Assembly (NCBI RefSeq): GCF_003231495.1
Contig: NZ_PQWO01000003.1
Location: forward strand, 360,001 to 392,000
Length of the DNA: 32,000 bases
Direction: 5' to 3'
DNA from: Acaryochloris thomasi RCC1774
Lineage (GTDB): Bacteria; Cyanobacteriota; Cyanobacteriia; Thermosynechococcales; Thermosynechococcaceae
Position 1 is the first letter of the stretch. Every line of letters begins with the position of its first letter. The position numbers and the translations under genes were made by a program. Below the pieces are notes generated by a model. The model saw only the letters and a program-made list of their open reading frames with translations. It searched no databases and had not been told where the DNA came from. Positions 3,517-31,428 of this stretch are shown here, in pieces.

Positions 3517-3518
3517 AA

Positions 3519-3755: not shown

Positions 3756-3763
3756 AAATATCT

Positions 3764-4385: not shown

Positions 4386-4516
4386 CTGGTTCGCCAGTTT
4401 GGTTCGGGGTTCTCCCGGCAGTCAGGTCTTAATCTGAAGACCCGCTAGACCGCTCCTAACGCAGTAAGCTGCTGTAGATCTTCTACAATGCAACTGTTGG
4501 GAGCGGATAGTTTTTT
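4386..4516 (+). promoter_or_regulatory. highly structured leader or small-RNA 3' region ending in T6, 15 nt upstream of the 4532 start
   Basis: Hairpins read by hand: 4386-4397 (CTGG-TTCG-CCAG, a UUCG tetraloop), 4405-4417, and 4425-4442 (GGTCTT/AAGACC). An outer 7-bp helix pairs 4450-4456 CCGCTCC with 4500-4506 GGAGCGG. It encloses two hairpins at 4461-4472 and 4473-4487 (TGTAGA/TCTACA). T6 follows at 4511-4516. Confidence 0.3.
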
Positions 4517-4531
4517 AAAGCCAGATATGGC

Positions 4532-7843: not shown

Positions 7844-7913
7844 GCTTCTCTTCAGGAATCTGGCGTCTAGACTATCGACACAGATTAATTGCTGGCGCTA
7901 AGATTAAGGATTA

Positions 7914-7946
7914 ACCGCCACTTATTGGCGGTGTACAACCTTTTTT
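7914..7946 (+). terminator. hairpin plus T-run after the MFS gene
   Basis: 7-bp stem ACCGCCA (7914-7920) / TGGCGGT (7926-7932) with a 5-nt loop. T6 lies at 7941-7946, separated from the stem by 8 nt, so it is not a canonical intrinsic terminator. Confidence 0.35.
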
Positions 7947-7948
7947 CT

Positions 7949-10601: not shown

Positions 10602-10704
10602 GCTAGTAAATTCATGTGAGATAAGTTTTCAACATGTCGATTTGAGACGTGGCCTTCAATCTAGTTAGAGGTTAGATTGGACAACCGACCCTGGCTTGGC
10701 CTCC

Positions 10705-11646
10705 ATGTCTCAAACACAGTCTCCTGTCAATCTAATTCTACCCGTGGGCACACAGGTCGTTAGCCGCATTGAAGTCAAAAATGCCGCAGGGGAAGCGCTG
10801 TGCCCACAGGGTGCGGTAGGGGTGATTGTGCGATCGCCTACAGATAATTCTCATACCTATCAAATCAAACTGCCAAACGATACACTCATCAGCCTGAAAC
10901 GACTGAATTTCAGTATTCGAAAGCATTTTCAGCGGGAAGGTTTGGAACCGCCTCAGTCGGCATTGGAAGAGCTGAATCTTTTTGATCACGTTATCTATCG
11001 CTGCGTGATTGGCTCCAGAGCCTACGGCCTTGATGATTCTGAGTCTGATACAGATCGGCGCGGCATCTATTTACCTCCGGCCCAGATGCACTGGTCACTC
11101 TATGGCATCCCAGAACAAATTGAGCACAAAGAAGAACAGGAGTGTTATTGGGAACTACAGAAATTTCTGGTACTGGCACTGAAGGCCAATCCCAACATAT
11201 TGGAGTGTTTGTACTCCCCCCTTGTGGAAACCGCAACGCCGTTAGCCCAAGAGCTGCTCAGTATTCGAGAGATTTTCCTTTCTCGGCTGGTGTACCAGAC
11301 CTACAATAGCTATGTGCTTTCACAGTTCAAGAAAATGGAGCAAGATCTCCGCACAAAGGGAATCATTCGGTGGAAGCATGCGATGCACCTGATTCGACTT
11401 TTGCTCTCCGGCATTACGGTCTTGAGGGATGGGTTTGTGCCCGTTCGAGTGGAAGCCTATCGAGATCGCCTCATGGCGATTAAATACGAGCAACTATCCT
11501 GGGATGAGATCAATCAGTGGCGCTTGAGCCTGCATACAGAATTTGATCACACCTTTGCTCAGACCCATCTACCCGAGCGTCCTGACTATGAAAAGGCCAA
11601 TGCCTTCTTGGTTCAGGCACGGCAAAGTCGAGTCGGCGAGCAATAG
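10705..11646 (+). CDS. Pol-beta-fold nucleotidyltransferase, YcgL/RlaP-like (PF10127-like), with an extra ~95-aa N-terminal domain
   Basis: NTase signature VIGSRAYGLDDSESDTDRRGIYLPP (G-S...D-x-D). The helical C-terminal half is homologous to the next ORF. ATG at 10705 lies inside the TTG-initiated track ORF. Confidence 0.8.
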   Translation: MSQTQSPVNLILPVGTQVVSRIEVKNAAGEALCPQGAVGVIVRSPTDNSHTYQIKLPNDTLISLKRLNFSIRKHFQREGLEPPQSALEELNLFDHVIYRCVIGSRAYGLDDSESDTDRRGIYLPPAQMHWSLYGIPEQIEHKEEQECYWELQKFLVLALKANPNILECLYSPLVETATPLAQELLSIREIFLSRLVYQTYNSYVLSQFKKMEQDLRTKGIIRWKHAMHLIRLLLSGITVLRDGFVPVRVEAYRDRLMAIKYEQLSWDEINQWRLSLHTEFDHTFAQTHLPERPDYEKANAFLVQARQSRVGEQ

Positions 11647-11649
11647 ACC

Positions 11650-12408
11650 ATGAATGCAGTAGATCCCCGACTGGTTAATGTTGTTGCTCAACAACCCTAC
11701 CCACTCCTGTTTGTAACGGTGAGTGGTGCACATCTCTATGGATTTCCTTCGGCTGATTCTGACTACGATCTTAGAGGAATCCACCAACTTCCCTTGACTG
11801 AGCTAGTCGGTTTAAGAAGGGGAAAAGAAACGATAGAAGTTTCCAATATTCAGCAAGGGCTAGAGATTGATTTAGTGACGCATGAGGCTAAAAAGTTTTT
11901 CAGTCTGCTGTTAAAACGCAATGGCTATGTACTAGAGCAGCTCTATTCTCCACTCGTTGTTCACCAAACAGGGCCAGAATATAACGAACTAAAAGATATT
12001 GCCAAGCACTGCATCACGCGTAATCACAGCTATCACTACTTGGGTTTTGCAAAAACACAATGGCGACTCTTTGAAAAAAGCAGCCCAAAACGGGTCAAGA
12101 CTCTGCTGTATGTCTATCGAGTTTTACTAACCGGCATCAACCTGATGCACAGTGGCGTCATCGAAGCGAATCTTGTCACTTTAAATGAAAAATTTCAGCT
12201 TCCTTACGTACCCGATCTGATTAATGCCAAGATCACAGGGACAGAGAAGAACACGCTGGATGTCTCCGATGTTGAATTCCATGAGCGAGAGTACATGAGG
12301 CTGTATCAAACACTTGAAGCCGCAAGCCAGGCAAGTCATTTGCCTGATGAACCCTCAGCAAAACCCGACCTGCATGATTTATTAATTAGGTTGCGATTAC
12401 AGGGCTAA
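11650..12408 (+). CDS. Pol-beta-fold nucleotidyltransferase, YcgL/RlaP-like (PF10127-like), paralog of the preceding gene
   Basis: NTase signature VSGAHLYGFPSADSDYDLRGIH. The ATG lies 3 nt after the upstream stop. The C-terminal helix VKTLLYVYRVLLTGINLMHSG parallels WKHAMHLIRLLLSGITVLRDG in the neighbour. Confidence 0.8.
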   Translation: MNAVDPRLVNVVAQQPYPLLFVTVSGAHLYGFPSADSDYDLRGIHQLPLTELVGLRRGKETIEVSNIQQGLEIDLVTHEAKKFFSLLLKRNGYVLEQLYSPLVVHQTGPEYNELKDIAKHCITRNHSYHYLGFAKTQWRLFEKSSPKRVKTLLYVYRVLLTGINLMHSGVIEANLVTLNEKFQLPYVPDLINAKITGTEKNTLDVSDVEFHEREYMRLYQTLEAASQASHLPDEPSAKPDLHDLLIRLRLQG

Positions 12409-12428
12409 AACACTCTGGAAGTCAGCAA

Positions 12429-12512
12429 TCAAGCACACAGCACGAGTATTTGCAGCGCCGAAGAAGCTTCTCTTAAAATGCTTTGAGCCAATAGCAAACT
12501 ATCAAGTCTCAC
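12429..12512 (-). pseudogene. ghost copy of the ctaB 3' end (last ~27 codons plus stop)
   Basis: The minus-strand translation RLDSLLLAQSILREASSALQILVLCA* aligns with the real CtaB C-terminus [26 protein letters not shown]. An ungapped hand alignment of 12429-12512 against 12566-12649 gives 56/84 identical nt. This includes 8/8 at the stop end (tcaagcac) and 24/27 at the inner end. Confidence 0.55.
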
Positions 12513-12565
12513 TATCAATAGCGCTCGAAGTATAGAGCAAATAGACCCAAGGTCATGACTGATTT

Positions 12566-13534
12566 TCAAGCACCCAATACAAGCATCTGTAATACCTGAG
12601 AGCCTTGAGCAACGAGGTTTTGAGTTAATGGCAAACTATCAAGTCCCATCCCTGCACAAAGCAACATCATGTATAAAATCGAGAATTTAAAGACAGATCG
12701 AGCCATTGTCTTATCTGCGGGACTCTGATTGAGCTGCCAGACCTTTTGTATGAACATGCCGCCTAGGACAAGTGCGATCGCACCATAAACTCCACCCGAA
12801 GCATGGAGCGGATACACCAATAGCAAAGACGTGGGCACCAGCAACACTGTATAAAACATCATCTGCTTAGCCGTGGAATCATCACCATCCACCACCGGCA
12901 TCATCGGCACGCCAACCTTGGCATAGTCCTCTTGAATCATCATCGCCAGAGGCCAGAAGTGAGGCGGTGTCCAGACAAACACGATCGCAAACATTGCCCA
13001 AGCCGCCAAGCTCAAATCCCCCGTGACCGCAGCCCAGCCCACCAGTGGCGGAATCGCACCAGCCGCACCGCCAATAACAATATTTTGCGTGGAAGAACGC
13101 TTCAGCCAAGCCGTATATACAAAGAAGTAGGCCGCAATCCCTGACATGGCGAGGCAGGCGCTTAGCAGATTGGCAACGGTGGCGAGAAGCGTGAAGGATA
13201 TTATTGCAAGTGCGATCGCAAACACCAAAGCCTGCCAAGGCTGAATCCGACCCGAAGGTAGCGGACGGTGGCGGGTGCGCTCCATTACATAATCAATATC
13301 GCGATCGTAGAGACAATTGATTGTATTCGCCGATCCTGCAGCCAAGGCTCCACCCGTCAAAGTTGCCAAAACTAAAACGCCATCCACTTGGCCCTTTGCC
13401 GCAACCCACATCGCCGCCGCCGTCGTAATCAAGAATAGAAGAATCAGACGGGGCTTCGTGAGCTGATAATAGTCCGCGATAGTTTGGGTGACACTCTCTT
13501 GCCAATTAGTTCCAGGCCAAGTCAGTCGTTGCAT
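12566..13534 (-). CDS. ctaB: protoheme IX farnesyltransferase (heme O synthase)
   Basis: UbiA-family polytopic protein with the motif [26 protein letters not shown] at 13534 (a GTG at 13546 is also possible). It sits next to ctaA and opposite ctaCDE. Confidence 0.93.
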
Positions 13535-13575
13535 AATAATCCCCACGTTCAGAGTTCAAAAATTTTGTAGTGAGA

Positions 13576-13597
13576 GAGCATCTCAATTCAGATGCTC
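13576..13597. other. perfect 8-bp hairpin in the ctaA-ctaB spacer
   Basis: GAGCATCT (13576-13583) / AGATGCTC (13590-13597) with a 6-nt loop, about 40 nt upstream of the ctaB ATG inside a 255-nt intergenic spacer. Confidence 0.4.
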
Positions 13598-13789
13598 ATC
13601 AGTCAAGATGTAGCGATTTTTAATCCAGAAGCAAAGTTGAAGACGTCCCCAGCTTTCTGCTTTCTCCCCCCAGAAGTGGAGCCACTGCGTTTGGCGGGTT
13701 CCCCGACTTGAAACAAGTGGCATGGGGGCCGGAAGGGCCAGTGCAAAGCGTTCATAATATCTCCCAAACGCCAGCGCTCCTTACATCCG

Positions 13790-14743
13790 TCATAAATTTG
13801 TTCCAATATTCAGATCCTGAGAACGATGGTCTCCACCCGGCTCTCGGCCATCGCGCCATGCCCAAACCGTAAACAGAACCAGTGATCCAAGCAGCGCCGC
13901 CCCAATCGCCTGATGAGCCACCGTTAATGCCACCACCTGCAAGTGCAGCCGTAGCGTAGACACACCCAAAACAACCTGAAGACCCAGCAGCAGCGTCATA
14001 ATCTGCGTCAGCATCCGCAGTCGAGGATGAAGCGCCGCCGTTCTCATCGCCAGCACCACCAGCACCACCACAGAAAACACCGCCGGTACTACTCCAGCAA
14101 AATGGCTATACATCACAGAACAGAGACGAGAACCGCCCAAACACTGATGCGCGGCCCAGCGAGATGCAACCACGCCACCTAAAATGCTTTGACCGTAGAC
14201 ACAGCCTACAGCCGCCATGCCCAGCCAGGACAGCCGACCGACAACGCCTGTCCCCTGGTAAGTTACGAGGGCAGCACCAATACCCAGCAGACAGCTAAAG
14301 AACATCAGTCCAGTTGCTAAATGGGCCGTCACAATATCAAACCGGAGCAGCTGGGTCACCGTCAGACCGCCCAGAATCCCTTGAGCAATGACCAATAGCA
14401 GACAGAGTCCAGCAGCCACGGGCACCCAACGCGGAATCTGCTTTCGCCAGAAGAGCGTCATGCCGGTTAAAGCAATCATCAAAAAGCCAATGGAAGAAGC
14501 GACCAGCCGATGGAACCACTCCAGAAAAACCTGAAGGTTCATTTGTTGTGCAGGTACTAACTCTCCGTAACAGAGAGGCCAGTCAGGACAGGAGAGGCCC
14601 GCATTCATGACTCGTGTGGTGCTGCCCAATGCCATTAAGAAAAAGGTCAGTACAGCCATACTCAGAAACATCCAGCCCAGACGCTCGGAAGGACTGCCTG
14701 CACTAGATTCAGCGGTGGAATTATTCAGTAAGCTATCAGCCAT
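13790..14743 (-). CDS. ctaA: heme A synthase (COX15/CtaA family)
   Basis: Multi-TM protein with histidine-bearing helices (EWFHRLVA, TAHLATG, VAHQAIG). ATG at 14743 lies inside the TTG-initiated track ORF. Confidence 0.9.
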   Translation of the reverse strand: MADSLLNNSTAESSAGSPSERLGWMFLSMAVLTFFLMALGSTTRVMNAGLSCPDWPLCYGELVPAQQMNLQVFLEWFHRLVASSIGFLMIALTGMTLFWRKQIPRWVPVAAGLCLLLVIAQGILGGLTVTQLLRFDIVTAHLATGLMFFSCLLGIGAALVTYQGTGVVGRLSWLGMAAVGCVYGQSILGGVVASRWAAHQCLGGSRLCSVMYSHFAGVVPAVFSVVVLVVLAMRTAALHPRLRMLTQIMTLLLGLQVVLGVSTLRLHLQVVALTVAHQAIGAALLGSLVLFTVWAWRDGREPGGDHRSQDLNIGTNL

Positions 14744-20518: not shown

Positions 20519-21409
20519 CTAGGTCGCCTGCTTTTTGGCCCAAAAGAAGCCCATAACGTTGGCGACCTGCGACATGAACAGCAGCAGAGAGACCAAAAAG
20601 CTAGGCTGGTTAGTGGGCTGCATGAACGGAAAACTCAGTAGCTTTGCATAGAAAGAAATAGGCTCCACTTTGATGTTGTCCTGTTTACGGTTCGCACGAA
20701 TAGCATGAAAGTAGAAAGCGCCGCGGCCGTAGTTAAAATGCTGACGCCAAAAGCTTTTGAACGTCAGGTGGTGGGCATGGTTAATAATGGCTTCCGGTGC
20801 GTAGTACATGGCATAGCCCTTGCTTGAGATGCGATCGCAAAATTCACGATCTTCCCCCGCAGCCAACGGGAAATTAGTATCGAATCCGCCTATCTGATGG
20901 AACAAATCTGCAGGGAGGGCAAAGTTATTGGAGGCAAAAAAACGTGCATTCTCTTCCCCTCCGTTGTAGTAGCTGTAGAGATAGTCAATCAAGAGCTGAC
21001 TAGTCGTGGAGTAAAGGTTTTTCTCTAGGGCGTTGAGAGTATGGCCACCAATCAGACCTTCGGATTTTTGCTCGAATTCGTGGGCAAACTGAGCTAACCA
21101 ATCAGGCTTAGGGGCACAATCATCATCGGTAAACACCAAATATTGACCCAGCGCACTCTCTGCTCCAGTATTGCGAGCCTTGGCAGGGCCGCTATTAGAT
21201 TGGCGAATCAAGCGAATCTGGATCTGTGACTGCACGGTGGCAATCACTGGCTCCATTGATTGTTCACTGCCGTCATCAACGACCACCACTTCCCAAGATT
21301 GCGTGGACAACGTTTGTTGAGTAAGGGCCTGAAGACATTGCGACAGCCTCTCAGGGCGGTTGTAGGTTGGAATAATAATAGACAGCAACGGCCTAGCTGA
21401 GTTCTCCAT
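20519..21409 (-). CDS. glycosyltransferase family 2
   Basis: LSIIIPTYNRPERLSQCLQAL, VVVVDDGSEQ, and a DxD-type FTDDDCAPKPDWL. Confidence 0.85.
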   Translation of the reverse strand: MENSARPLLSIIIPTYNRPERLSQCLQALTQQTLSTQSWEVVVVDDGSEQSMEPVIATVQSQIQIRLIRQSNSGPAKARNTGAESALGQYLVFTDDDCAPKPDWLAQFAHEFEQKSEGLIGGHTLNALEKNLYSTTSQLLIDYLYSYYNGGEENARFFASNNFALPADLFHQIGGFDTNFPLAAGEDREFCDRISSKGYAMYYAPEAIINHAHHLTFKSFWRQHFNYGRGAFYFHAIRANRKQDNIKVEPISFYAKLLSFPFMQPTNQPSFLVSLLLFMSQVANVMGFFWAKKQAT

Positions 21410-21490
21410 AAATTAATGCTCGGTAAGTGCAGCTATCGGCCGAGTCAACTCGGAGGCATCAAGCCGTTGAGAGCGCACGTTGTTCAATTA

Positions 21491-22207
21491 TCAACCTAAA
21501 TTAGAATATCGATTATTTTCTGAAAGCATTGTACTGATTGACTGAAATCCTACGCTTACAAAATAGAGTGACCAGCTAACGATTCCTAAGAACTTACTTC
21601 CATTCTCCATTAGAGAGCGGAGACTACTTTCAGCAATGCTTTCTGGCAGAGGGATAAAGCGCATATCTAAAGAAACTGAAAGCGCAAAGAAGGCAAATGC
21701 CAATGTAATCAACAACAGATTCCTATTAATTACTTTTCTTCTAAATTTCCAAAAGAATAGGATCATAGAAAGCCCATAAGCTAAAAGCAATAACTTTTGT
21801 GGAATTAAAAGATAGTCTGGGAAAATCTTTTCATGAATCAAGAACAAGTCATCAAATAAAAAGACAGCACTTATGAGGCCCGAACCGAGGAAGAATGAGT
21901 ACGTTTCCCGTTCATAGGGTCGATATTTGATCAGTGCTGCACAGAAGAAACAGATTCCTGCAGAGATGCACCATCCTAAAATCCCGAGATTAGAGAGCGC
22001 TCCTAAGTAAAACTTCTGGCCAGTTATTGTTGCCGGATCGCCAACCAGATAGAAGACATTGACTTTTTTTTGCAGTCCTACTCCAGTCAGTATCAGAAAA
22101 CTGAGGGAATAGATAACTAACAGTGTCTTAAAAAAGCTTTTGTTTTTATTGAATAAGGCTAATCGAAGCTTCATATAGCATAATACATCGATGGCTAGCA
22201 TGGCCAT
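21491..22207 (-). CDS. AT-rich small polytopic membrane protein, function unknown
   Basis: 238-aa ORF with about 6 hydrophobic spans. The gene and both flanking spacers are visibly AT-rich compared with all neighbours. It has its own 217-nt upstream spacer. Confidence 0.55.
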   Translation of the reverse strand: MAMLAIDVLCYMKLRLALFNKNKSFFKTLLVIYSLSFLILTGVGLQKKVNVFYLVGDPATITGQKFYLGALSNLGILGWCISAGICFFCAALIKYRPYERETYSFFLGSGLISAVFLFDDLFLIHEKIFPDYLLIPQKLLLLAYGLSMILFFWKFRRKVINRNLLLITLAFAFFALSVSLDMRFIPLPESIAESSLRSLMENGSKFLGIVSWSLYFVSVGFQSISTMLSENNRYSNLG

Positions 22208-22424
22208 GACACAGTTGTTTGTAGTCCGCTATTGCGGTCAGTGGCGGTGGCTAGCTAGCTCGTATTCTTAAGAAGAATCAAAATAAGCCAACAACAGCTA
22301 TGTCAATTAACCGCGATTTTATTTTAACGATATTTAATTGAAGCTTAACCTATATTTAGAGTAAAGTCTTAGGTATGCCCAGATAACTAAGCTATGGATG
22401 AATTTTGCTGCGAGTACAGCTTAA

Positions 22425-23894
22425 TTAGGCTTTCTGAGTGTCTTTAGACCGCGACAGCGCGACTCGGCCAATCTCCCAGAATTCAGCAACAATCTGAGGT
22501 GCCAGGGTACGAAGCATCAAACCGTAGGTCGCCGCTCCTAGAAGCGTGCATAGAGACAGGATTATGATTTGCATTTCTATGAGGGAAGTCAAGTAAGTCT
22601 TCACTGACAAAAGAAGCCCCATCATAACCAGTGAGCTAACCAAGGCTGCGGAGAACTGCCTCGAGTAGGTGAAGAAAGGAATCTTGACCATCCGACTGAG
22701 AACCCATTGCCCAACCGGAAAGACGATTAAGCCACGCATCATATTGGCAAAGGTGACGCCAATAATGCCCCAGCGAAACGCGATCGCAAATCCCACCAAG
22801 TTCAGCGTCACGCTCAAAAATTTCAGCTTCATGGCCCAAGCAGGTTCTCCTAAGGCCATAAAAACGGAGCTTTTAAAGAACGAAATGGAGCGCACGAGGC
22901 CCAAAATCGACAGCAACTGAATCACCGGCACGGCGGGTAGCCACTTCTCCCCAAATAAGACTGTCACAAGCTCAGGGGCCAGAACAGAGGTGCCGAGGAA
23001 GAAAGGAAATGCGATCGCGCTGGTCAATCGCGTCACCGTATAAAAGGCATTGCGGAATCGGTTGAGGTCGTGCTTTAGCCGCGAGAACGTGGGCAGCGAA
23101 ACGCCGCTTGTTGTCCGCACCAGCAGTTGCGTCATCACCTGCAAAATCCGGTAGGAAATGGCGTAGTACCCTAGGGCCACAGAGCCGAGGAAGTAGCCAA
23201 TTAAAAAATCATTGATCTTGGTATTAAAAAAATTAAGGAAGTTCAGCCCCAAAACATGACTCCCGAAGCGAAAGAGCTGCCGGAAGTGCCGGAGCGAAAA
23301 CCGGAAGCGGGGTCGCCAGTCGCTGGCCTTCCAGATCACAAGGGTGCCGACAAGTTCGTTCATAAACTGCTGCCCGACAAGGCTCCAGACCCCTAAGCCG
23401 GACAGGGCCATGCCGATGCCGGTGATGCCACCGATCATGATCCCCAATAGCGATCGCATCGCTATTGCCTTGAAGGCAAATTGTCGTTCTAGAACAGCCT
23501 GCTGCGTTCCGCGCAGCGCATTGATCAAGAAGATCAGCGAAAAACAGCGCAGAATCGGCGTCAGTCGCGGCTCATCAAAACCAGCAGCAATCCAGTCAGC
23601 GGTGAGCAGGCTCAGCAGACCGAGGGCAATACCGATGGCAATATTGGTCCAGAAGGCCGTATCTAAATGCTCAGGTTCTAGATCTTCGCGCTGAATCAGA
23701 GCCTGAGCAAATCCCTGCTCTAGAAAGATTTGCATAAACGCTAGAAAGACGTTCGCCAAGGCCACTAAGCCAAAATCGGCAGGCTCCAGCAGACGAGCCA
23801 GAACAAAGAAAACCAAGAAAGCTCCCATCTGGCCTGCCCAGTTTTGAATGCCTGTCCACAATGCGCCTCGAATGGCCTGCTGCTTAAGGGTCAT
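22425..23894 (-). CDS. polysaccharide biosynthesis protein / Wzx-type flippase (MOP superfamily)
   Basis: 489 aa with about 12-14 TM spans. The N-terminal region GALWTGIQNWAGQMGAFLVFFVLARLLEPADFGLVALA is typical of PST/Wzx proteins. The ATG overlaps the upstream stop (ATGA at 23891-23894). Confidence 0.85.
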   Translation of the reverse strand: MTLKQQAIRGALWTGIQNWAGQMGAFLVFFVLARLLEPADFGLVALANVFLAFMQIFLEQGFAQALIQREDLEPEHLDTAFWTNIAIGIALGLLSLLTADWIAAGFDEPRLTPILRCFSLIFLINALRGTQQAVLERQFAFKAIAMRSLLGIMIGGITGIGMALSGLGVWSLVGQQFMNELVGTLVIWKASDWRPRFRFSLRHFRQLFRFGSHVLGLNFLNFFNTKINDFLIGYFLGSVALGYYAISYRILQVMTQLLVRTTSGVSLPTFSRLKHDLNRFRNAFYTVTRLTSAIAFPFFLGTSVLAPELVTVLFGEKWLPAVPVIQLLSILGLVRSISFFKSSVFMALGEPAWAMKLKFLSVTLNLVGFAIAFRWGIIGVTFANMMRGLIVFPVGQWVLSRMVKIPFFTYSRQFSAALVSSLVMMGLLLSVKTYLTSLIEMQIIILSLCTLLGAATYGLMLRTLAPQIVAEFWEIGRVALSRSKDTQKA

Positions 23895-25390
23895 AGAGAC
23901 TGTGATGAGAGAGGAATAGCCCGCAGAAGCCAGCGTGTTTTGCTGGCCGCTTTGCCGAGCAGGTATTGGGGAAGGCTATGGGCCTTTGTGGACAGAATCT
24001 GCAGCGGTCCGAAGGATAAATCCTCTGGATTAAAGGGGTAGTCGAGCAGCTCTGGCACTGTTCGCCGGATGAGTGCCTCTTGAATCAGAGAGTTAAGGCG
24101 CTGGGACTCGGGGATGCTGAGCAGCAATGCATAGAGATAGGCACAGTTGAGAATGGGGAACCGCACTAGATCGGTCAAGTCGTAGACCTGCTCTTTGGCG
24201 CTCAGCCAGCCTGCCTGCCGCTGTTCAATAAAAAAGCGATCGCACCAGTTGAGATGAGGATGGGGATGGCGTGCGATCCAGGCCAGCCATTCTTGCAGAC
24301 CTGCGGTCGCTGAAGAGGTCTCACGTTCCTGAAAGAGCTGAGCCATGAGTTTGGCTCCGGTTTTAGGATTCGGCATCACTTCGGGAAGTTCGCGCAGTCG
24401 CCAGAACCCACTTGCGATCGCAAATCCATGTCCTCCAAACGCCAGTCCCTTAAGCTGATCGCGGTCACCTCTCACAAAAGGTTCAGCATCCCCAGCGGAG
24501 ATTTGCCCCCCGCTGTGTGCTTCGACTAGAGCCTGCCGTTCCGGGAATCGCTGATCTCGACGAAGAAAAGTGTGGGAATAGCCACAAACCTCAGCCAGCA
24601 GAGGCGGCAGTCGCTGGTCGGCAATCGACATCCGCGCAGCCACTCGCGTGTATAGCTTGACCTCAATTTGGGCCACTCGACAGAGAGCCATCATCAGCCG
24701 CGAATCATAGCCTGCCGTTAACCCTAGCCACAGCGGCTGGTTCTGGGTGGATAAGCGCTTGAGCGTTGTAACCAGGGACTGCTGAATAAGCTCTAGCCCC
24801 TGTTCGTATGCTCGCTCAGGCTGAATAGCAGGCATGAGCGGTCGAGGAATGGGGTTCCCTGTTTCTAGGCGGAGCGCCTGTGACGGCAGCAGCCGCTGAA
24901 TACCCAAAAATTGACTGCGGGGCGGCGGATACCAAGAGATTCCCGTTTCATAATGTAGATGGCGGGGATCGGTGACCTCAGCCGATAGAACCTCCGCTAA
25001 AAGCGCTGCGCTGCTAGAGGCCCAGGTCTTGCCCTCTGATGTTTGACCATAGAAGCAGCCCAGTAAACCACTGGCATCCAAGTACAGCATTTTCTCATCT
25101 AGGAGAATCCAGCGGCCTGCCCAGTTGGCAGAAAGCTCAGGAACTTTATCGGTAGTTGTCTTGGCAATATCGACGAGGGGTGCCGAGCGGTGTGGCTGGG
25201 TCTCAACAGCCAGCCCTAGCAAAAACCAGCGGGTGCCGTCCAGATCTTGAGCATTCCCGACCCGAAGTTCAGGGCAATGAGAGAGGTCAATCGAGGCGCT
25301 CACAGAGACAGAATGCCAGTGTCCGTTAGGGTTGACAGGAGTCGGCCCTAAGATGAACTGCCGCCGATGCAGGTGTTTAAATGCTGCCAT
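23891..25390 (-). CDS. asparagine-synthetase-like (AsnB-fold) protein lacking the N-terminal Cys nucleophile, with a variant PP-loop
   Basis: LWLGLTAGYDSRLMMAL sits where AsnB has LLSGGLDSS. The upstream segment GRWILLDEKMLYLDASGLLGCFYG...WASSSAALL resembles the end of the AsnB Ntn domain (F..D....L.RD..G..PLY....ASE.KAL). The N-terminus MAAFKH has no Cys2. Confidence 0.5.
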   Translation of the reverse strand: MAAFKHLHRRQFILGPTPVNPNGHWHSVSVSASIDLSHCPELRVGNAQDLDGTRWFLLGLAVETQPHRSAPLVDIAKTTTDKVPELSANWAGRWILLDEKMLYLDASGLLGCFYGQTSEGKTWASSSAALLAEVLSAEVTDPRHLHYETGISWYPPPRSQFLGIQRLLPSQALRLETGNPIPRPLMPAIQPERAYEQGLELIQQSLVTTLKRLSTQNQPLWLGLTAGYDSRLMMALCRVAQIEVKLYTRVAARMSIADQRLPPLLAEVCGYSHTFLRRDQRFPERQALVEAHSGGQISAGDAEPFVRGDRDQLKGLAFGGHGFAIASGFWRLRELPEVMPNPKTGAKLMAQLFQERETSSATAGLQEWLAWIARHPHPHLNWCDRFFIEQRQAGWLSAKEQVYDLTDLVRFPILNCAYLYALLLSIPESQRLNSLIQEALIRRTVPELLDYPFNPEDLSFGPLQILSTKAHSLPQYLLGKAASKTRWLLRAIPLSSQSL

Positions 25391-26474
25391 CGAGCTGATC
25401 CTGTGTCAGGGTCTGTGGAGATCCAATTTTGCCCCGTCCGTGCTGTTGTACGTTAAGCCGCTTTTGCTGTTGGGCGTGACGGTGGGTTAGGTAGCGGTTG
25501 ATGGGGTGTTCTAGTTTTGCGATCGCACGGGTTAGCAAAGAATTCCCCACACCAAAAGTCAGTTTGCGCGTTAGCGGCTCTAGCAATGTACCGTAGCGTC
25601 GCCAGCCTAACCTTTTGTATTTAGTCTTAAAGTAACCATCCTCGGCTAGATCCCACTTTTCACGCAGGCGCTTGAGGCTACCCAACGTCCACTCATCGCT
25701 CCAGCGCAGCATGTAGTAGTGCATATCACTGCGTTCCAGAGGCGGACCCGGGACGTAGGTGACGAGGCTATCGGGTTCAAAATAGACCGATTCGCTGAGC
25801 TGCCGCACCAGCATACAGAAATCCAAATGCTCTTTTGTGTTGAACATCGCCTCATCTAGGGGGCCTGTTTGCTCAAAAATCGAACGCCGCACCAGTACGC
25901 AGTGAAACTCCGCTAGCTCCGTCTGCGTGCGGGTCAGGCGCTGACGCACGGTGTACACCTGCTTGCCTTGGTCGTACATCTTTTCCCGCAGGCGACGACG
26001 GCCCAGTTTGTCCACCCAGATATGGGATTCTCCACCGGCGAAATGCACAACTTCGTGAACAGGCTCCTCTTGGCACATTAGGGGACCGACCACCGCTGCA
26101 CCCGTTTCATCGGCACAGTTCAGCAGCGCCGTTAGCCAACCTGGCGTGACCACCACATCATTATCAATAAAGACAACATAGGGCGTTTTAACCTGCGCTA
26201 GCCCTAGATTGCGAGCCTGATTGGGGTAGAGGTAGTAATTGGTCTGCAGCAGCAAGAAGTTCTTCTCTTGCGATCGCATCTCTAGATAGTCACGAACCTT
26301 CGCCGGAGAGTTGCCATCCACGTAGATCAACTGAAAGGGAAGCTGAGTATGGTCATAAATGCTGTCTAATGAAACTTGAGTACAGCTAAATCGCTCACGG
26401 GGAACGACAACAATGGTTACCCGAGGATTTTCCTGAGGCGTATTGCTGTGCTGTTGGGGGGCGGTGGGTGACAT
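25377..26474 (-). CDS. glycosyltransferase family 2-like
   Basis: VTIVVVPRERFSCTQVSLDSI, LIYVDGNSP, and a DxD-type FIDNDVVVTPGWL. The stop region overlaps the next ATG by 14 nt. Confidence 0.75.
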   Translation of the reverse strand: MSPTAPQQHSNTPQENPRVTIVVVPRERFSCTQVSLDSIYDHTQLPFQLIYVDGNSPAKVRDYLEMRSQEKNFLLLQTNYYLYPNQARNLGLAQVKTPYVVFIDNDVVVTPGWLTALLNCADETGAAVVGPLMCQEEPVHEVVHFAGGESHIWVDKLGRRRLREKMYDQGKQVYTVRQRLTRTQTELAEFHCVLVRRSIFEQTGPLDEAMFNTKEHLDFCMLVRQLSESVYFEPDSLVTYVPGPPLERSDMHYYMLRWSDEWTLGSLKRLREKWDLAEDGYFKTKYKRLGWRRYGTLLEPLTRKLTFGVGNSLLTRAIAKLEHPINRYLTHRHAQQQKRLNVQQHGRGKIGSPQTLTQDQLDGSI

Positions 26475-26506
26475 AACCGATAGCTCCGGGTCTTGCGATA
26501 AGTTGA

Positions 26507-27775
26507 CTAGCTAAGCTGATGCTGTGGAATATTCGGAGAAAGAGTGGGTGTCCCTGACAGCTCCCCATAGAGATGCACGAGCTGATGGTTAAGTTGACTC
26601 AGGCTGTAATTTTCCATGACGAAGGCTCGGCCCGCTTTACCCATCTGAGGCCATTGGTGAGGATGATCACATAGATACCGGAGTCGCTCCGCAAGGGCTG
26701 TTGCATCTCGCTCTGGAACCAAAAAGCCTGAAACTCCATCCTGGACTAGCTCGGGAATCCCGCCATGCTCGGTACTAATGACAGGGATACCCAAAGCCAT
26801 CGCCTCCTTTAAGACGTTGATGGGGGCATCCTGGTTGCCGTCCTTTGCAGTGACGCTGGGGGCGATGAAAATATGGGTTTGAGCCAAGATATCAATGATT
26901 TCATCCTCAGTTTGCCAGCCCCGCAACTGAATCTGAGAGGTTACTCCCAGCGTTTCGATCAGTTCCTGAAGCGGCTGCCTTAGAGGACCGTCACCCAGAA
27001 TTGAATACTGCAGCGAATAGCCCTGATCAATGAGCTGCGCCACGGCTCGAATCGCGTACTCAATGCCCTTTTTCTCTGCCAATCGTCCCGTTGTTGCCAC
27101 TCGGATCGGTCCCTGCTGGGGCAAAGAACGGGACTTAAACGGGAAACGATCGCATTCCAGGCCCGAGCGATGAACCACAATCCGGTCAGGAGGGCAGCCT
27201 AAGCGAATGGCACGGTCTCTAAAGAAATCGCAGTTGGTAAGAAAGAAATCACCCGCCTTAAAAAGGTGATCATAAATGTGGGATCCTTTCTGTTGGACAA
27301 ATCGGCTGATATCATCTCCGCGAAAGGTCGTGACCAGCTTAGCCTCCGGCGCGTGCATCGCTTGAAAACACAGACCTCGGTAGCTTTGAGTACCAAACTG
27401 ACAGTGGACAATGTCGTAATCCTTGTGATGGTTAGGGACCAGCGTATACAGCGCCCAAAGGGAGAGTGACCGTTTGCCCTGTTTGAGAATATTGAGCGAT
27501 CGCAACGTCGCGAAGGGATCTTGAGCCCAACAGTGGGCCAATAGCGGCAGTGCCTTAAGCACTCGAATCGCAAGATTTCCGGGTACTTTACTGAGATAAG
27601 TAGTGCGATCTAGAAGGTCATACTGCTCCACAAGCGGGTGCAGCTTTTGAGAATTGCCCTGCTGGTCAGCATAGATATCCACCTGATGTCCCCGCTCCAG
27701 TAAACCGGCGGCCTGATTGATGATAAAGGTCTCCGATAGGCTAGGAAAGGTACCGACAATAAAGGCAATGTTCAT
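26507..27775 (-). CDS. glycosyltransferase family 4 (GT-B, group 1)
   Basis: MNIAFIVGTFPSLSETF N-terminus and the C-terminal E-x7-E region EHGGIPELVQDGVSGFLVPERD. ATG at 27775 is preferred over the track start at 27793. Confidence 0.9.
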   Translation of the reverse strand: MNIAFIVGTFPSLSETFIINQAAGLLERGHQVDIYADQQGNSQKLHPLVEQYDLLDRTTYLSKVPGNLAIRVLKALPLLAHCWAQDPFATLRSLNILKQGKRSLSLWALYTLVPNHHKDYDIVHCQFGTQSYRGLCFQAMHAPEAKLVTTFRGDDISRFVQQKGSHIYDHLFKAGDFFLTNCDFFRDRAIRLGCPPDRIVVHRSGLECDRFPFKSRSLPQQGPIRVATTGRLAEKKGIEYAIRAVAQLIDQGYSLQYSILGDGPLRQPLQELIETLGVTSQIQLRGWQTEDEIIDILAQTHIFIAPSVTAKDGNQDAPINVLKEAMALGIPVISTEHGGIPELVQDGVSGFLVPERDATALAERLRYLCDHPHQWPQMGKAGRAFVMENYSLSQLNHQLVHLYGELSGTPTLSPNIPQHQLS

Positions 27776-27826
27776 AAGCGATCTATGTTCCACTGACTAG
27801 GCACAAGAAGACAGGACTAAACGACG

Positions 27827-28738
27827 TTAGCGGGGAGAAACGCCACCAAGTCGGAGCCTCACAAGCTCCCAAGCACTGACGTATCTGACAAAAAACATAG
27901 CAAGAGAGGCGGCTGCTTTTTGCTGCATCCCCTGCAGCGCTGAATTGCGAAACGTATTGACCACAAACCGCAGCGGCGGGACCAGATGTGTCGCTAGCGT
28001 CCAAGCAAAAAATGGGTCGGGCTGCGATCTCCGGTTGCTCAGATCGTATTCGCCTCCTACGAGACGAACAGTCCGCTGATAAAGCTGCCCCCAAGCGTAA
28101 CGAGCCGGGTGTTGAACCCTTGCTGCCTCAACGTAGCGCTGCTGATAGCCCGCTGCATAAACCCGCTGTCCCCACTCTAGATCGCCCCGAGACTTTAGCG
28201 ATCCATCGAACAGTCCCACGCGATCCATCACGGCCCGGAAGGTAAAAAGATTGGCCGTGGCCGCTCCTCTTTCTCGTGCCAGCAGGTCTGCCTGCGGAAA
28301 AGCGGTAATACTTTCGTACAGCTCAATGGGGTTAGGGCACTGCGGATTGCGAAAAAATATATCAATCGCCCCGGCCACTAAGCCACAGTTCGGTGTCTGC
28401 AAAAGTTCTGAGACACCCGCTTCTAACCAGTCTGCTGCTGGAATGCAGTCTGCATCAGTGAAGGCAAGAATGGTCCCTTTTGCGGCTGCAATGCCTCGGT
28501 TGCGAGCGGCGTAAGATCCTGGCTGAGGCTCATTGACATAGCGGGTCTGCCGGTGGTTCGCAGCAATTTCTGCAATGCCTTGACTGCGGTCAGAACCGTT
28601 ATCAATCACAATCACTTCGTAGGCGGAAGGATCATAGCTCTGCTGCTCCAGAGCTGCCAAGCAAAGCTGAAGTCGTTCAGCATCGTTAAAGACTGGCACA
28701 ATCACAGAAACAAATTGAGTCTGGTTCTGGTCACTCAC
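27827..28738 (-). CDS. glycosyltransferase family 2
   Basis: VSVIVPVFNDAERLQLCLAALEQQ, VIVIDNGSDRS and FTDADCIPAADWL. GTG start at 28738. Confidence 0.85.
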   Translation of the reverse strand: MSDQNQTQFVSVIVPVFNDAERLQLCLAALEQQSYDPSAYEVIVIDNGSDRSQGIAEIAANHRQTRYVNEPQPGSYAARNRGIAAAKGTILAFTDADCIPAADWLEAGVSELLQTPNCGLVAGAIDIFFRNPQCPNPIELYESITAFPQADLLARERGAATANLFTFRAVMDRVGLFDGSLKSRGDLEWGQRVYAAGYQQRYVEAARVQHPARYAWGQLYQRTVRLVGGEYDLSNRRSQPDPFFAWTLATHLVPPLRFVVNTFRNSALQGMQQKAAASLAMFFVRYVSAWELVRLRLGGVSPR

Positions 28739-28789
28739 GGCTCAACCTCAAAGAGATCACGCATCAAATTCGGGCTTGGGAATAGCAGT

Positions 28790-30247
28790 TCATCGAGCCG
28801 CCTGCTCAGCCTTCAGCTTCGTCCATTGCTCCTTGGTAAAATCTTCGTAGTAGGAGCGCTCTGTATTCACGTTCCAAAGATCGTGGGACTCGCCCAGAAT
28901 GTTTTTAGCCGCGAGCAGGCCCGTTAACATTGAGTGATCTTGGTTGTTATAGCGATGCATCCCGTTGCGACCAACGGTCTGCAGATTCTCAAAGGCTTCT
29001 AGATAATCACGAATAACCTGTAGATGCTGACGATATTCGCCGTCATAGACGGGGTAAGCTTTGCGCTGACGGATCACAACGCCGTCTTCCACCTGGCAAT
29101 CCTTGGGCATCAGGCCCAGGTCAGCGACTTCACGCGTGGCCAGCTCGATAAGGTTGCGATCGCACATTTCCCAAATCTCATCCCCTTCGCTGCAGAAATA
29201 CTCCATGCCTAGGCAGGTTTTGCTGGCATCTGGCACCATTGCCGGACTCCAGTTCTTGAAGTTTTGAATCCGGCCCACCTTAAAATCTGGATTGTGAATA
29301 TAGAGCCAATTATCGGGGAAAAGATCAGGATGATCGATGATCAGGGAAACAATCAGAAAGTCTCGGTATTTCAGCCCCTGGGCAGCTTCGAGCACTTCGG
29401 GCGGCGCGGCTGGAGACAGAAGCCGGACCAGCATCGTAACCGGAATACTAAAAATGAACTGCTCCCCTGAAAACTCAACTAAGTCTTCTCCCTGCTGAGC
29501 GATCACCCGCTCTATCATCATGCCTTGGCGTTCTACCTTGATCGCCTTCGTATTGAGATGGACTGATGCTCCCTTCTCAATGACTTTGTCCTGAAAGCGC
29601 TCCCACATCATGCCTGGCCCCAGCAAGGGATAGTCAAAAGTCTTAATAAGCGTCTTCGTATTTTCGCCCCCGAACAAAGCATTAATTACAGCCTGCTTCA
29701 GCGACAGCCCCTTGATTCGCTGAGCAGCCCACTCCGCTTGAATCTTGTTGCACGGAATTCCCCAAACCTTCTCTGTATAGGTTTTGAAAAAAGTCTGATA
29801 CAGCCGTCGTCCAAATCGATCGGTGACCCAATCTTCAAAGTTTTCAGGCTCCGGCCCCGGCGCTATTTTGGCCTTCGCCTTCGCCTTGAGATAGCTTAGA
29901 ACAATCGATGAACTCGTGATGGGGCCTAGATTCAAGAGCGTATTGAGAATGGATAAAGGATAATCAAAGAACTTCCCGTTGTAGTAAATTCTAGACATTC
30001 TCGGCACTTGAATAAATTCATCGCCCAGAACTTCTTGCCATAGTTGCTGCACTTCGCCAATTTTAGTGAAAAATCGGTGGCCGCCAATGTCAAATCGATA
30101 GCCTTTGTAAACCTCAGTACGAGAAATTCCGCCGACCATATCTGCCTGCTCTAAAACAGTGGGAGTTACACCATGTTTCGTCAGGTCATAGGCAGCCGTC
30201 AACCCTGCGGGACCTGCACCAATGATGATTGTTTCTTTCGATTTCAT
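28790..30247 (-). CDS. NAD(P)/FAD-dependent oxidoreductase (amine-oxidase / UDP-galactopyranose-mutase-like fold)
   Basis: Dinucleotide-binding motif IIIGAGPAGLTAAYDL followed by VLEQADMVGGISRT and FDIGGHRFF. 485 aa. Confidence 0.85.
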   Translation of the reverse strand: MKSKETIIIGAGPAGLTAAYDLTKHGVTPTVLEQADMVGGISRTEVYKGYRFDIGGHRFFTKIGEVQQLWQEVLGDEFIQVPRMSRIYYNGKFFDYPLSILNTLLNLGPITSSSIVLSYLKAKAKAKIAPGPEPENFEDWVTDRFGRRLYQTFFKTYTEKVWGIPCNKIQAEWAAQRIKGLSLKQAVINALFGGENTKTLIKTFDYPLLGPGMMWERFQDKVIEKGASVHLNTKAIKVERQGMMIERVIAQQGEDLVEFSGEQFIFSIPVTMLVRLLSPAAPPEVLEAAQGLKYRDFLIVSLIIDHPDLFPDNWLYIHNPDFKVGRIQNFKNWSPAMVPDASKTCLGMEYFCSEGDEIWEMCDRNLIELATREVADLGLMPKDCQVEDGVVIRQRKAYPVYDGEYRQHLQVIRDYLEAFENLQTVGRNGMHRYNNQDHSMLTGLLAAKNILGESHDLWNVNTERSYYEDFTKEQWTKLKAEQAAR

Positions 30248-30414
30248 AGAGCAACTACAATTTTTTCTGCAAGGGATCGTTGAGATAAAACGGTATAAAG
30301 AGATACACGCCTAAATAATTTCAAAAACAGACGCCGATCCTTAAGCCTGTTTCGTCTTGCTGGCTGCGGGAAAATGGCCCTTTGCAATTACAAGATTCAA
30401 GAGGCTAACTCAAA

Positions 30415-31428
30415 TCAAGGCGCAAACGTCGTCTCTTTAAAGATGAACCTCAGGTTGCCAATTGCAAATGATAGGCCACTGTAAAAATAATAGAAGATAT
30501 GCCAGGGGATGACCTGTAGTGCAAACAGAATACCTCTTTCTTTTTGAAAGAAGTGATACACAGGAATGTTGATCCCAATCACAAGACAGAGCAGTGCTGC
30601 CGTCAGGAGCCAGATGATTGGCCAAAATAAAGCAATGACGATGGATGCAAGGAACGCAAAGACTAGGACTACGCTCACTTGACTAGAAGTGCGTAGATTG
30701 AGATCGCTCGTAAACTTCGCGTAGTCCTGCGGACTTTCTTGCTTGATTTCTAACAGTAATGCTGTCCAAGGCAGAGCGCGATAGAAGACCTCAGCCCGCA
30801 GCAAAGAAAAAGGCTTCCAGCATTTCAAATGCTTCACCTGAATGTCTTTCTCTAGACCGATCTGATAGCCTGCTCGCTTGAGCCTGTAGCCCAGCTCGAT
30901 ATCTTCGATGCAGGGACGCCGATATTTTTCGTCAAATCCACCCACTTTTTCAAAAATAGGCCGTCGAATCGCTCCGCAAGCCCCCCAAAATGTGGAGGCT
31001 TCTTCATTGCCCAGCTGATGGTTGTAGTGGTGAAAGAGATTCTTATACTGAGACAGAAAGTTAGAGGCTCCGGGAGAATCATCATAGGAACCAATGAGCG
31101 CGGATAGGCTAGCGTTGTGTTCAAAGGCCTGTAGCACCTTGCTCATGGTGTCAGGATGGACCACCACGTCGGCATCAACAAAGAAAAGAATATCACCCTC
31201 TGCCACTGCCGCACCGGAGTTTCTTGCGACGGCTGGCCCTCTTGATTCAGGTAGCCTAATGAGCCGAGTCCCAAATTCATCCGCTAGCTTCCAGCTACTG
31301 TCTGATTCTCCGTCGGCAACAACAATGATTTCAGTGCCTGGAGGCGCAAACTCCGTCAGGCTCGCTAAGCATCGCCGAAAGCCATCTCCTCCGTTGTGTA
31401 CGGGAACAATTACAGATAGTTTTTGCAT
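30415..31428 (-). CDS. glycosyltransferase family 2 with a C-terminal transmembrane region
   Basis: LSVIVPVHNGGDGFRRCLASL, IIVVADGESDSS, FFVDADVVVHPD and CIEDIELGYRLKRAGYQI. The last ~100 aa contain hydrophobic helices (VVLVFAFLASIVIALFWPIIWLLTAALLCLVIGI). Confidence 0.85.
   Translation of the reverse strand: MQKLSVIVPVHNGGDGFRRCLASLTEFAPPGTEIIVVADGESDSSWKLADEFGTRLIRLPESRGPAVARNSGAAVAEGDILFFVDADVVVHPDTMSKVLQAFEHNASLSALIGSYDDSPGASNFLSQYKNLFHHYNHQLGNEEASTFWGACGAIRRPIFEKVGGFDEKYRRPCIEDIELGYRLKRAGYQIGLEKDIQVKHLKCWKPFSLLRAEVFYRALPWTALLLEIKQESPQDYAKFTSDLNLRTSSQVSVVLVFAFLASIVIALFWPIIWLLTAALLCLVIGINIPVYHFFQKERGILFALQVIPWHIFYYFYSGLSFAIGNLRFIFKETTFAP

Follow-up and report, generated by a model that had tools for sequence, protein, structure and literature searches.

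Within the window, a 32,000-nt stretch of the Acaryochloris thomasi RCC1774 genome, a minus-strand glycan operon (positions 20519–31428) holds genes for a GT2 glycosyltransferase, a 238-aa unknown protein, a Wzx flippase, an AsnB-fold protein, a GT2, a GT4, a further GT2, an FAD oxidoreductase of the PRK07208 type and another GT2. The AsnB-fold gene (P0001; 23891–25390, minus strand, stop codon included) encodes a glutaminase-less PP-loop protein of 499 aa, and every motif quoted in a preliminary description of this DNA is present in its ORF: MAAFKHLHRRQ (residues 1–11), the Ntn-like block GRWILLDEKMLYLDASGLLGCFYGQTSEGKTWASSSAALL (residues 92–131) and the PP-loop region LWLGLTAGYDSRLMMAL (residues 220–236), the last two spaced by ~100–130 residues. 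The overlap with both neighbours described there was likewise read from the sequence, with an ATGA common to the stop TGA (23893–23891) and the ATG of the Wzx gene (23894–23892), and a 14-nt overlap between the ATG at 25390 and the end of the upstream GT2 gene at 25377. Farther upstream the frame contains no other start, and the residue after the initiator Met is not Cys. The gene is single-copy in its own genome, and it can be taken as real and conserved, given an orthologue at 90% identity and relatives numbering in the hundreds.

Among the adjoining genes, the Wzx/MOP-family flippase (22425–23894, minus strand) matches PF13440 (2e-95) and scores 268.7 bits with NF007773, against a cut-off of 273. 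The 365-aa GT2 (25377–26474, minus strand; PF00535) is the most constant neighbour of the family, its orthologue lying immediately upstream of the family gene in ~24 of 44 related loci, followed by the WcaL-like GT4 (26507–27793, minus strand; assigned with Pfam and NCBIfam, below cut-off), found a few kilobases or less away in ~30 of the 44. The eight-gene order recurs in Leptothermofonsia and two other cyanobacterial loci. Family genes occur in polysaccharide loci, most commonly straight after a GT4–GT2 pair, and their neighbours in 29–44 loci from several phyla are mainly GT2, GT4, Wzx or Wzm/Wzt, which bears out the glycan-cluster setting proposed earlier. Coupling to the flippase, also proposed, holds here through the ATGA overlap but is not a family trait, as the loci differ in their exporter, which is either Wzx or Wzm/Wzt. 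When the top 25 families among the 111 nearest neighbours were tallied, uronic-acid, pyruvyl-transferase and amine-donor genes were not enriched; the genome's only UDP-glucose dehydrogenase-family gene lies, with an epimerase/dehydratase partner, ~11 kb past the glycan cluster. A multi-pass membrane protein of ~535 aa, without a Pfam match, flanks the family gene in 10 other loci but was not found in the RCC1774 genome with a query from those loci, and so is not an obligate partner. A predicted complex of the adjacent GT2 and the AsnB-fold protein scored 0.00 and was weighed neither for nor against any reading.

The family comprises ~1,733 representatives at 50% identity, distributed patchily over Cyanobacteria, Pseudomonadota, Planctomycetota, Gemmatimonadota, Nitrospirota and other phyla. 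It has no Pfam or NCBIfam model and its members are labelled 'hypothetical protein'. A search for fused, longer forms (875–2495 aa) found none, which is weak evidence, and the literature yielded nothing specific on a characterised family member or on glutaminase-less AsnB homologues in polysaccharide loci.

Fold assignment

The AlphaFold2 model of the protein (pLDDT 91) has a two-domain layout, with an Ntn-type alpha-beta-beta-alpha N-domain and a PP-loop Rossmann-like C-domain. Searched with Foldseek, the model matches beta-lactam synthetase (BLS) and carbapenam synthetase (CarA) at E 1e-13, and PurF and GlmS through their Ntn domains, in agreement with the AsnB-type fold proposed from the sequence. 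At the profile level, hhalign of the family against AsnB gave 94% probability (E 2.5e-8), and a broader family profile run against the PDB picked up CarA (9e-4) and NAD synthetase (3e-3) through the PP-loop, which aligned with its counterparts in these two proteins and in QueC. The broader profile was required because a close-family profile returned only antibody matches to its W-x-W-V motif, which we rejected as spurious; with the single sequence, phmmer against the PDB gave only noise.

Single-model searches were less telling. Pfam returned nothing up to E 10, PF00733 included, and the protein did not reach the curated cut-offs of PF00733 or TIGR01536, which together with PF13537 make up the signature of AsnB as a class II glutamine amidotransferase; among 28 relatives, one matched TIGR01536 at E 0.001 and one PF00733 at E 0.17. 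The sole curated model to match was NF033561 (E 6.6e-7, 28.3 bits, residues 74–236 only), which 19 of the 28 relatives also match. Of the HMM checks suggested in the preliminary description, PF00733 thus failed; AsnB/PP-loop homology is borne out by profile search through hhalign, NF033561 and the PDB match to CarA. The AsnB/beta-lactam-synthetase fold assignment, drawn from the model and profile comparison, is solid.

Conservation and loss of AsnB residues

The N-terminal Ntn-like domain (residues 1–190; 24821–25390, minus strand), supported by structural match, hhalign, Foldseek and conservation counts, begins with MAAFKHLHRRQF. Its structural match starts at model residue 9–10 (R10/Q11), opposite residue 1–2 of AsnB and CarA. 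The Cys nucleophile that AsnB exposes after Met removal is absent from the protein and from its family: of 245 relatives, 228 have Gln at position 11 and none has Cys there, and an invariant H-R-R-Q-F motif occupies the Cys1 position. In hhalign, residues 92–131 pair with the AsnB Ntn core strands, and the glutaminase residues R49 and N74-G75-E76 face E41 and L58-G59-L60, only the Gly being kept of the AsnB set R49, N74-G75-E76 and D98. The glutaminase Cys and core are thus gone, as first described. Across the same 245 relatives, which extend down to ~28% identity and underlie all our conservation counts, the domain has its own invariant residues, namely H8, Q11, W25, G59, W90-G92-R93-W94, D105, S125–S127, P157 and Q171.

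In the C-terminal PP-loop synthetase domain (residues 195–456; 24023–24808, minus strand), the PP-loop itself, L224-T-A-G-Y-D-S-R231 (24698–24721, minus strand), was located by alignment to AsnB, CarA, NAD synthetase and QueC, and T225-A-G-Y-D-S230 sits after strand 220–223 of the model. With hhalign it falls opposite AsnB L232-S234-G-G-L-D238-S239; it is itself a loop of the SGGxDS type, with its own first two positions off consensus. The S-to-T and G-to-A replacements noted earlier are therefore present, but they are not unusual. The family form is L-[T/S]-[A/G/S]-G-x-D-S-R, with T in 187 relatives and S in 58 at the first position, and A in 175, G in 55 and S in 13 at the second; since the variant is conserved in this way, T-A-G is the family norm and no oddity of this gene. 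A new subfamily, as had been suggested, does stand on its ~1,733 representatives without a model of their own, but not on PP-loop substitutions that are the majority state.

The rest of the loop is more strictly kept (G227, 245/245; D229, 244/245; S230, 237/245; R231, 245/245), and conservation of the active site over the 245 members extends to T248, D258 and G320. Other invariant residues of the domain are H273, H292, D301, W382-R-D-R385, E389-Q-R391, W395, E400-Q401, D404, N415, P452, N454 and P455. The AsnB adenine, ribose and Mg positions L232, V272, D279 and S346-G347 are kept, their counterparts being the adenine-contacting L224 and V250, D258 near AsnB D279, and G319-G320 at the ribose/phosphate turn. 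In hhalign, H321, F323 and A324 stand at AsnB E348, D351 and E352; the human ASNS equivalents of these three AsnB residues hold the amino group of the substrate and do not bind ATP (PMC6748925). AsnB Lys449, the counterpart of human ASNS Lys466, is essential (PMC6748925); its position is Asp450 here, variable in the family and in a low-confidence region of the alignment. The same low-confidence region shows no Lys conserved in the family near residues 450–455, and the mapping of Lys429 and Lys449 is tentative because the C-terminal 100 residues alone align to AsnB with a probability of only 1%. BLS and CarA have a catalytic Lys443 and a Tyr-Glu dyad; structurally, BLS/CarA 441–445 face model residues 454–456, a correspondence of ranges only, in which the invariant P452, N454 and P455 are seen and no Lys. 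From the alignments, the catalytic Lys449 is probably replaced, and on sequence the acidic cluster E348/D351/E352, the Lys449 site, Arg231 and H-R-R-Q-F are bigger departures from AsnB than the T/A of the PP-loop. The domain is followed by a basic helical tail (residues 462–499; 23894–24007, minus strand) that is sequence-variable and modelled at lower confidence (pLDDT 53–84 for helices 462–491); C-terminal ends in the family are K/R-rich and variable, and we infer a role in membrane association.

Proposed function and rival explanations

We give about an even chance to the protein being an adenylating, ATP-dependent ligase for glycan decoration, and the family as a whole is predicted, probably, to put an amide-type decoration on surface glycans. 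It would work in the cytoplasm as a glutaminase-less AsnB/beta-lactam-synthetase superfamily member in the service of a polysaccharide pathway. By its residues, it would bind Mg-ATP and adenylate a carboxyl group, releasing PPi, and free ammonia or an amine would then attack the acyl-AMP to give the amide. The glycan is the most likely carboxylate source, candidates being a uronic acid or other acidic sugar, carried perhaps on a nucleotide-sugar or on an undecaprenyl-linked repeat unit from the adjoining GT4 and GT2. Aspartate would not be the carboxylate, since H321/F323/A324 replace the AsnB cluster. The phosphate contact of AsnB Lys449 may have passed to the invariant Arg231 and to basic residues in the W-R-D-R/E-Q-R helix. 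By analogy with beta-lactam synthetase, the N-domain, itself strongly conserved, probably contributes to the substrate site and does not deliver ammonia. The UDP-glucose dehydrogenase-family gene near the cluster speaks for this reading; the missing counterpart of Lys449, the failure of PF00733 and the lack of enrichment of uronic-acid, pyruvyl-transferase or amine-donor genes in the neighbour tally speak against it. A bolder version, which we consider unlikely, is an unrecognised class of glycan-tailoring ligase acting at the membrane on undecaprenyl-linked repeat units right before export, in which the Ntn set H8/Q11/R93/D105/S125–127 would be the binding or catalytic site for lipid-linked glycan or amine donor, and R231 with the W-R-D-R helix an Arg-based phosphate clamp in place of the canonical catalytic Lys.

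Amidine formation has been proposed for PP-loop amidotransferases of the WbuX/PseA type, and it is conceivable, if rather unlikely, that the present enzyme uses ATP to activate another group or reaches another outcome on the glycan, such as an amidine on an N-acetyl sugar, a hydroxamate, ester or lactam, or an amino acid added to an amino sugar. The substrate pocket residues are wholly unlike those of AsnB, the nearest structural relatives span amide, beta-lactam and hydroxamate formation, and carboxylated-sugar genes are not enriched in the neighbour tally; however, to our knowledge carboxylate adenylation is the rule for all characterised two-domain AsnB-fold enzymes (AsnB, BLS, CarA, TsnB9, lasso cyclases), and the data indicate no particular alternative. 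Loss of Cys1, the glutaminase residues, E348/D351/E352 and apparently Lys449 could also mark an inactive pseudoenzyme serving as scaffold, chaperone or specificity subunit for the adjacent glycosyltransferases or exporter, in keeping with the tight coupling to the GT2 and Wzx genes and the multi-pass membrane proteins that often adjoin the family gene. This we hold to be distinctly unlikely: the PP-loop Asp, Ser and Gly, Asp258 and G320 are (near-)invariant in 245 diverged members, which is hard to account for without nucleotide binding, and since the equivalents of E348/D351/E352 in human ASNS bind the amino group (PMC6748925), their loss argues for a different substrate and not a dead site.

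That the protein is a RiPP macrolactam or lasso-peptide cyclase, in a glycan operon by chance, is extremely improbable. NF033561 is the only curated model to match, and at one distant locus (L046) a divergent TTL–PqqD fusion gene adjoins the family gene, but the match reaches 28 bits against a cut-off of 300 over residues 74–236 only, Pfam and NCBIfam searches of the window revealed no lasso protease, RRE or precursor-like gene, and the genes next door, in one phylum after another, encode glycosyltransferases and exporters of glycans; on this score and the glycan context we ruled it out.

Surface polysaccharides of bacteria, cyanobacteria included, change in charge and antigenicity when they carry amide or aminoacyl decorations, and few of the enzymes responsible have been assigned. 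The AsnB-fold PP-loop family linked to GT4 and GT2 is a concrete candidate, and it adds to the known sequences of the AsnB/beta-lactam-synthetase superfamily a form that has neither the canonical Lys nor the acid cluster.

Comparison with known AsnB-fold systems

Relative to AsnB (1CT9; human ASNS, 6GQ3), the protein lacks Cys1, R49, N74 and E76, has H321/F323/A324 for E348/D351/E352 and, tentatively, Gln437 for Lys429, and does not conserve Lys449. AsnB-type amidotransferases of O-antigen and EPS loci (WbpS-type) have been proposed to amidate acidic sugars. Like our gene, the WbpS-type and TIGR03108 XrtA/PEP-CTERM amidotransferases are AsnB-superfamily members in surface-polysaccharide clusters, but they have an N-terminal Cys and glutaminase domain, ~600–650 aa and good PF00733/TIGR01536 scores, none of which holds for this family. 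The lasso and albusnodin/ikarugamycin macrolactam cyclases (NF033561) are also AsnB-fold adenylating amide-bond formers, with a weak but significant match (E 6.6e-7) that is partial, at 28 against 300 bits, and without RiPP context. The hydroxyamidotransferase TsnB9 (7YLZ), a natural-product enzyme of the trichostatin pathway, is longer (576–623 aa) and 12% identical. BLS (1JGT/1MB9) and CarA (1Q15) have the fold in common with our protein at only 12–14% identity. Their S-G-G-L-D-S-S contrasts with T-A-G-x-D-S-R, and no conserved Lys was found in the family at the position tentatively matched to their Lys443. Its N-domain is highly conserved and carries an H-R-R-Q-F motif of its own. Moreover, BLS and CarA belong to beta-lactam clusters, whereas the AsnB-fold gene belongs to a glycan operon.

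The AsnB-fold gene and its operon

The AsnB-fold gene (23891-25390, minus strand) encodes 499 residues, in which the three strings quoted in the preliminary description are all found: MAAFKHLHRRQ at residues 1-11, GRWILL...SSSAALL at residues 92-131 and LWLGLTAGYDSRLMMAL at residues 220-236. As that description had also claimed, the gene overlaps both neighbours: downstream, its stop codon and the start of the gene for a Wzx-type flippase (22425-23894) overlap in ATGA, and upstream, its start codon lies 14 nt inside a GT2 glycosyltransferase gene (25377-26474). It belongs to a nine-gene minus-strand operon (20519-31428) whose other products are four GT2 and one GT4 glycosyltransferases, Wzx, a PRK07208-type FAD oxidoreductase and a 238-aa protein (21491-22207, minus) with no Pfam or NCBIfam match and no counterpart in any of 44 related loci (tblastn, E 1e-10, half coverage). 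The FAD amine-oxidase-type protein (28790-30247, minus) scores 690 bits against NF005548 (PRK07208, 'hypothetical protein') and shows weak UDP-galactopyranose-mutase similarity; several cyanobacteria conserve it within this cluster. Outside the operon the window holds unrelated housekeeping genes (cytochrome oxidase, GroEL, acetolactate synthase and others); here we observed two adjacent RlaP-family genes (PF10127, RNA-repair-pathway nucleotidyltransferase; 10696-12408, plus; 316 and 252 aa) and an acetolactate-synthase-type TPP enzyme (7889-9772, plus) whose last 25 residues form a C-terminal zinc-ribbon (PF13240).

Just beyond the window (retrieved locus L087, G000:C3:391001-408000) lie genes for a PMT_2-type GT-C membrane glycosyltransferase (locus positions 1071-2615), a WecA/MraY-type priming transferase (6872-7990) and an epimerase/dehydratase, which forms a pair with the one UDP-glucose-dehydrogenase-family gene that the genome has (11725-14167). 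A larger, split glycan locus is possible. Given the last-named gene, uronic acids can be made; our neighbour survey of related loci found no acidic-sugar gene specifically tied to the AsnB-fold family.

Fold, homology and the N-terminal domain

Pfam gave no match to the protein even at E 10, and a single-sequence PDB search returned noise. The only curated model to respond was NF033561 (AsnB-type macrolactam cyclase; E 6.6e-7, 28 bits versus a cut-off of 300), confined to residues 74-236 and matched also by 19 of 28 relatives. With these 28 as input, AlphaFold2 produced a predicted structure that is confident (mean pLDDT 91.4, pTM 0.89), for which Foldseek retrieved beta-lactam synthetase (BLS), carbapenam synthetase (CarA), AsnB, human asparagine synthetase (ASNS) and the hydroxyamidotransferase TsnB9 at E 1e-13 to 1e-10; the paired values recorded for the structural matches were 21.8 and 392 for CarA, 21.6 and 358 for E. 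coli AsnB, 21.2 and 403 for TsnB9, and 21.1 and 369 for BLS. A wider profile of the family (A2, 40 sequences with identities as low as 28%) matched CarA (E 9e-4) and NH3-dependent NAD synthetase (3e-3), both aligned at the PP-loop, and profile-profile comparison with an alignment of E. coli AsnB and 12 cyanobacterial AsnB proteins gave 94% probability (E 2.5e-8). The lack of profile homology that, by the preliminary description's own account, would have refuted it thus did not arise, and the proposed AsnB/PP-loop homology is real.

Structural alignments begin with model residue 9-10 set against residue 1-2 of AsnB and CarA, so that R10/Q11, inside the chain, stand where the Ntn cysteine would be. 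Position 11 is Gln in 228 of 245 relatives, with gaps in the remainder and never Cys, and H8, R10 and F12 are likewise conserved. Moreover, hhalign pairs AsnB R49 with E41 and N74-G75-E76 with L58-G59-L60, bearing out the earlier proposal that the glutaminase cysteine and core are missing, and residues 92-131, as proposed, match up with conserved strands in the core of AsnB's Ntn domain. The N-terminal domain is therefore an Ntn fold without glutaminase chemistry. Its very strong conservation nonetheless (W25, G59, W90-G92-R93-W94, D105, S125-S127, P157, Q171) argues that it has a function.

Nucleotide core and substrate pocket

In its well-aligned middle section, the hhalign result pairs AsnB L232 (literature numbering) with L224, S234-G-G-L-D238-S239 with T225-A-G-Y-D229-S230, V272 with V250, D279 with D258 (within one residue) and S346-G347 with G319-G320. 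Across the 245-member alignment the PP-loop reads T187/S58, A175/G55/S13, G245, x, D244, S237, and R231 comes next in every case (245/245); D258 is likewise invariant (245/245), T248 and G320 nearly so (241/245 and 231/245). By these counts T-A-G is the normal state of the family and not the unusual substitution first described, and Thr/Ser and Ala/Gly swap freely at the first positions; the accompanying suggestion of a new subfamily fits the lack of any curated model for the family or characterised member in our literature searches.

AsnB E348, D351 and E352 are replaced by H321, F323 and A324. The equivalent human ASNS cluster (Glu364/Asp367/Glu368) holds the aspartyl substrate by its amino group and does not bind ATP (PMC6748925), so its loss points to a different substrate. 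A weightier concern is AsnB Lys449 (Lys466 in ASNS), which touches the adenylate phosphate and is essential (PMC6748925); in a low-confidence part of the alignment this region reads D450-Y-P-F-N-P, with P452, N454 and P455 invariant and position 450 variable (K45, E39, R37, Q30, A24, D21), and Lys429 pairs, also with low confidence, with Q437. We conclude from these alignments that the nucleotide-binding core is kept and that the pocket has been rebuilt on its phosphate and substrate side; R231, which is invariant, and the W382-R-D-R385/E389-Q-R391 helix are candidates to replace the lost contacts.

Distribution, glycan context and possible function

When 1.84 billion representatives were searched exhaustively with phmmer, 1,733 proteins matched at E <= 1e-3, of which 865 reached <= 1e-10 and 285 reached <= 1e-30. 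A word-indexed search returned mainly cyanobacterial 'hypothetical proteins' without Pfam domains, and neighbours in the ESM Atlas were clusters without names, drawn from Pseudomonadota, Actinomycetota and Chloroflexota, of which a few are partly covered by PF00733; named genome matches comprised many cyanobacteria together with Pirellulaceae, Gemmatimonadota, Nitrospira, Balneolales and Pseudomonadota MAGs. Within Cyanobacteria the gene is patchy, with no match at E <= 1e-20 in an even sample of 200 other species genomes. It is single-copy in A. thomasi RCC1774, whose genome has no canonical AsnB: our search turned up only GMP synthase and a cyanobacterial-type lasso-peptide cyclase fragment (NF033535, 296 bits), which is limited to the N-terminal half, lies on a 1.7-kb contig (G000:C65, L002) and appears frameshifted or cut by assembly. 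Longer fused forms were sought and none found. In two loci the cluster contains a further paralogue with 36-37% identity (L020:1463-2881 and L025:3446-4906), which suggests more than one decoration step.

Orthologues of the window GT4 lie near the gene in ~30 of the 44 loci and those of the 365-aa GT2 in ~24, where most lie immediately upstream and point the same way, and the whole eight-gene order recurs in Leptothermofonsia and two other loci. Among the 111 nearest neighbours from 29 loci, the commonest Pfam families are GT2 (19), GT4 (13), Wzx (10) and ABC/Wzt (5). The coupling to the flippase noted earlier holds for the overlap here, but Wzx follows the gene in only ~12 of 44 loci, and in Fischerella and other Nostocales the GT4-GT2-gene trio precedes Wzm/Wzt instead, linking the gene to glycan assembly rather than to the flippase as such. 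Distant members adjoin a pyruvyl transferase, a GFO/IDH/MocA oxidoreductase, a Bac_transf priming enzyme and an ATP-grasp protein. In one Pseudomonadota MAG (L046) the gene, which Wzx follows, is divergent to one for a 757-aa fusion of tubulin-tyrosine-ligase-type ATP-grasp and PqqD-like (RiPP recognition) domains (3399-5669, minus), an odd mix of peptide-ligase and glycan genes. Ten cyanobacterial loci place beside the gene an unannotated multi-pass membrane protein of ~535 aa (about 525-550; 7-12 predicted TM segments, 38-75% mutual identity) without Pfam match (L026:4873-6483, L027:6334-7959, L030:6347-7954, L032:6331-7941, L034:2492-4093, L036:24-1625, L019:9462-11030, L020:6362-7936, L025:4960-6606 and L056:11091-12710). 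This protein could be a polymerase of the Wzy type or some other partner in the membrane, and a search of the window's own genome did not find it.

The best-supported mechanism, to which we give about an even chance, is one in which the enzyme would use ATP to adenylate a carboxylate that ammonia or an amine would then attack, so tailoring, in the cytoplasm and ahead of export, the glycan made by the adjoining GT4 and GT2. Our analyses show the fold, the homology, the lost glutaminase site, the conserved nucleotide core and the glycan setting; ATP use, amide formation and substrate are here what we infer. Some different PP-loop chemistry is possible though unlikely, and a pseudoenzyme or scaffold, against which the invariance of the PP-loop in the family speaks, is somewhat less probable again. 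That NF033561 responds at all might recall a RiPP cyclase, but its score far below cut-off and the glycan genes around the gene make this very improbable.

Glutaminase-less AsnB-fold ligases are already known (BLS, CarA and lasso cyclases), as are AsnB homologues in O-antigen loci. The present family is set apart from those ligases by its T/S-A/G-G-x-D-S-R loop, by the missing Lys (placed from a low-confidence alignment) and acid cluster, and by a conserved, re-purposed N-domain.
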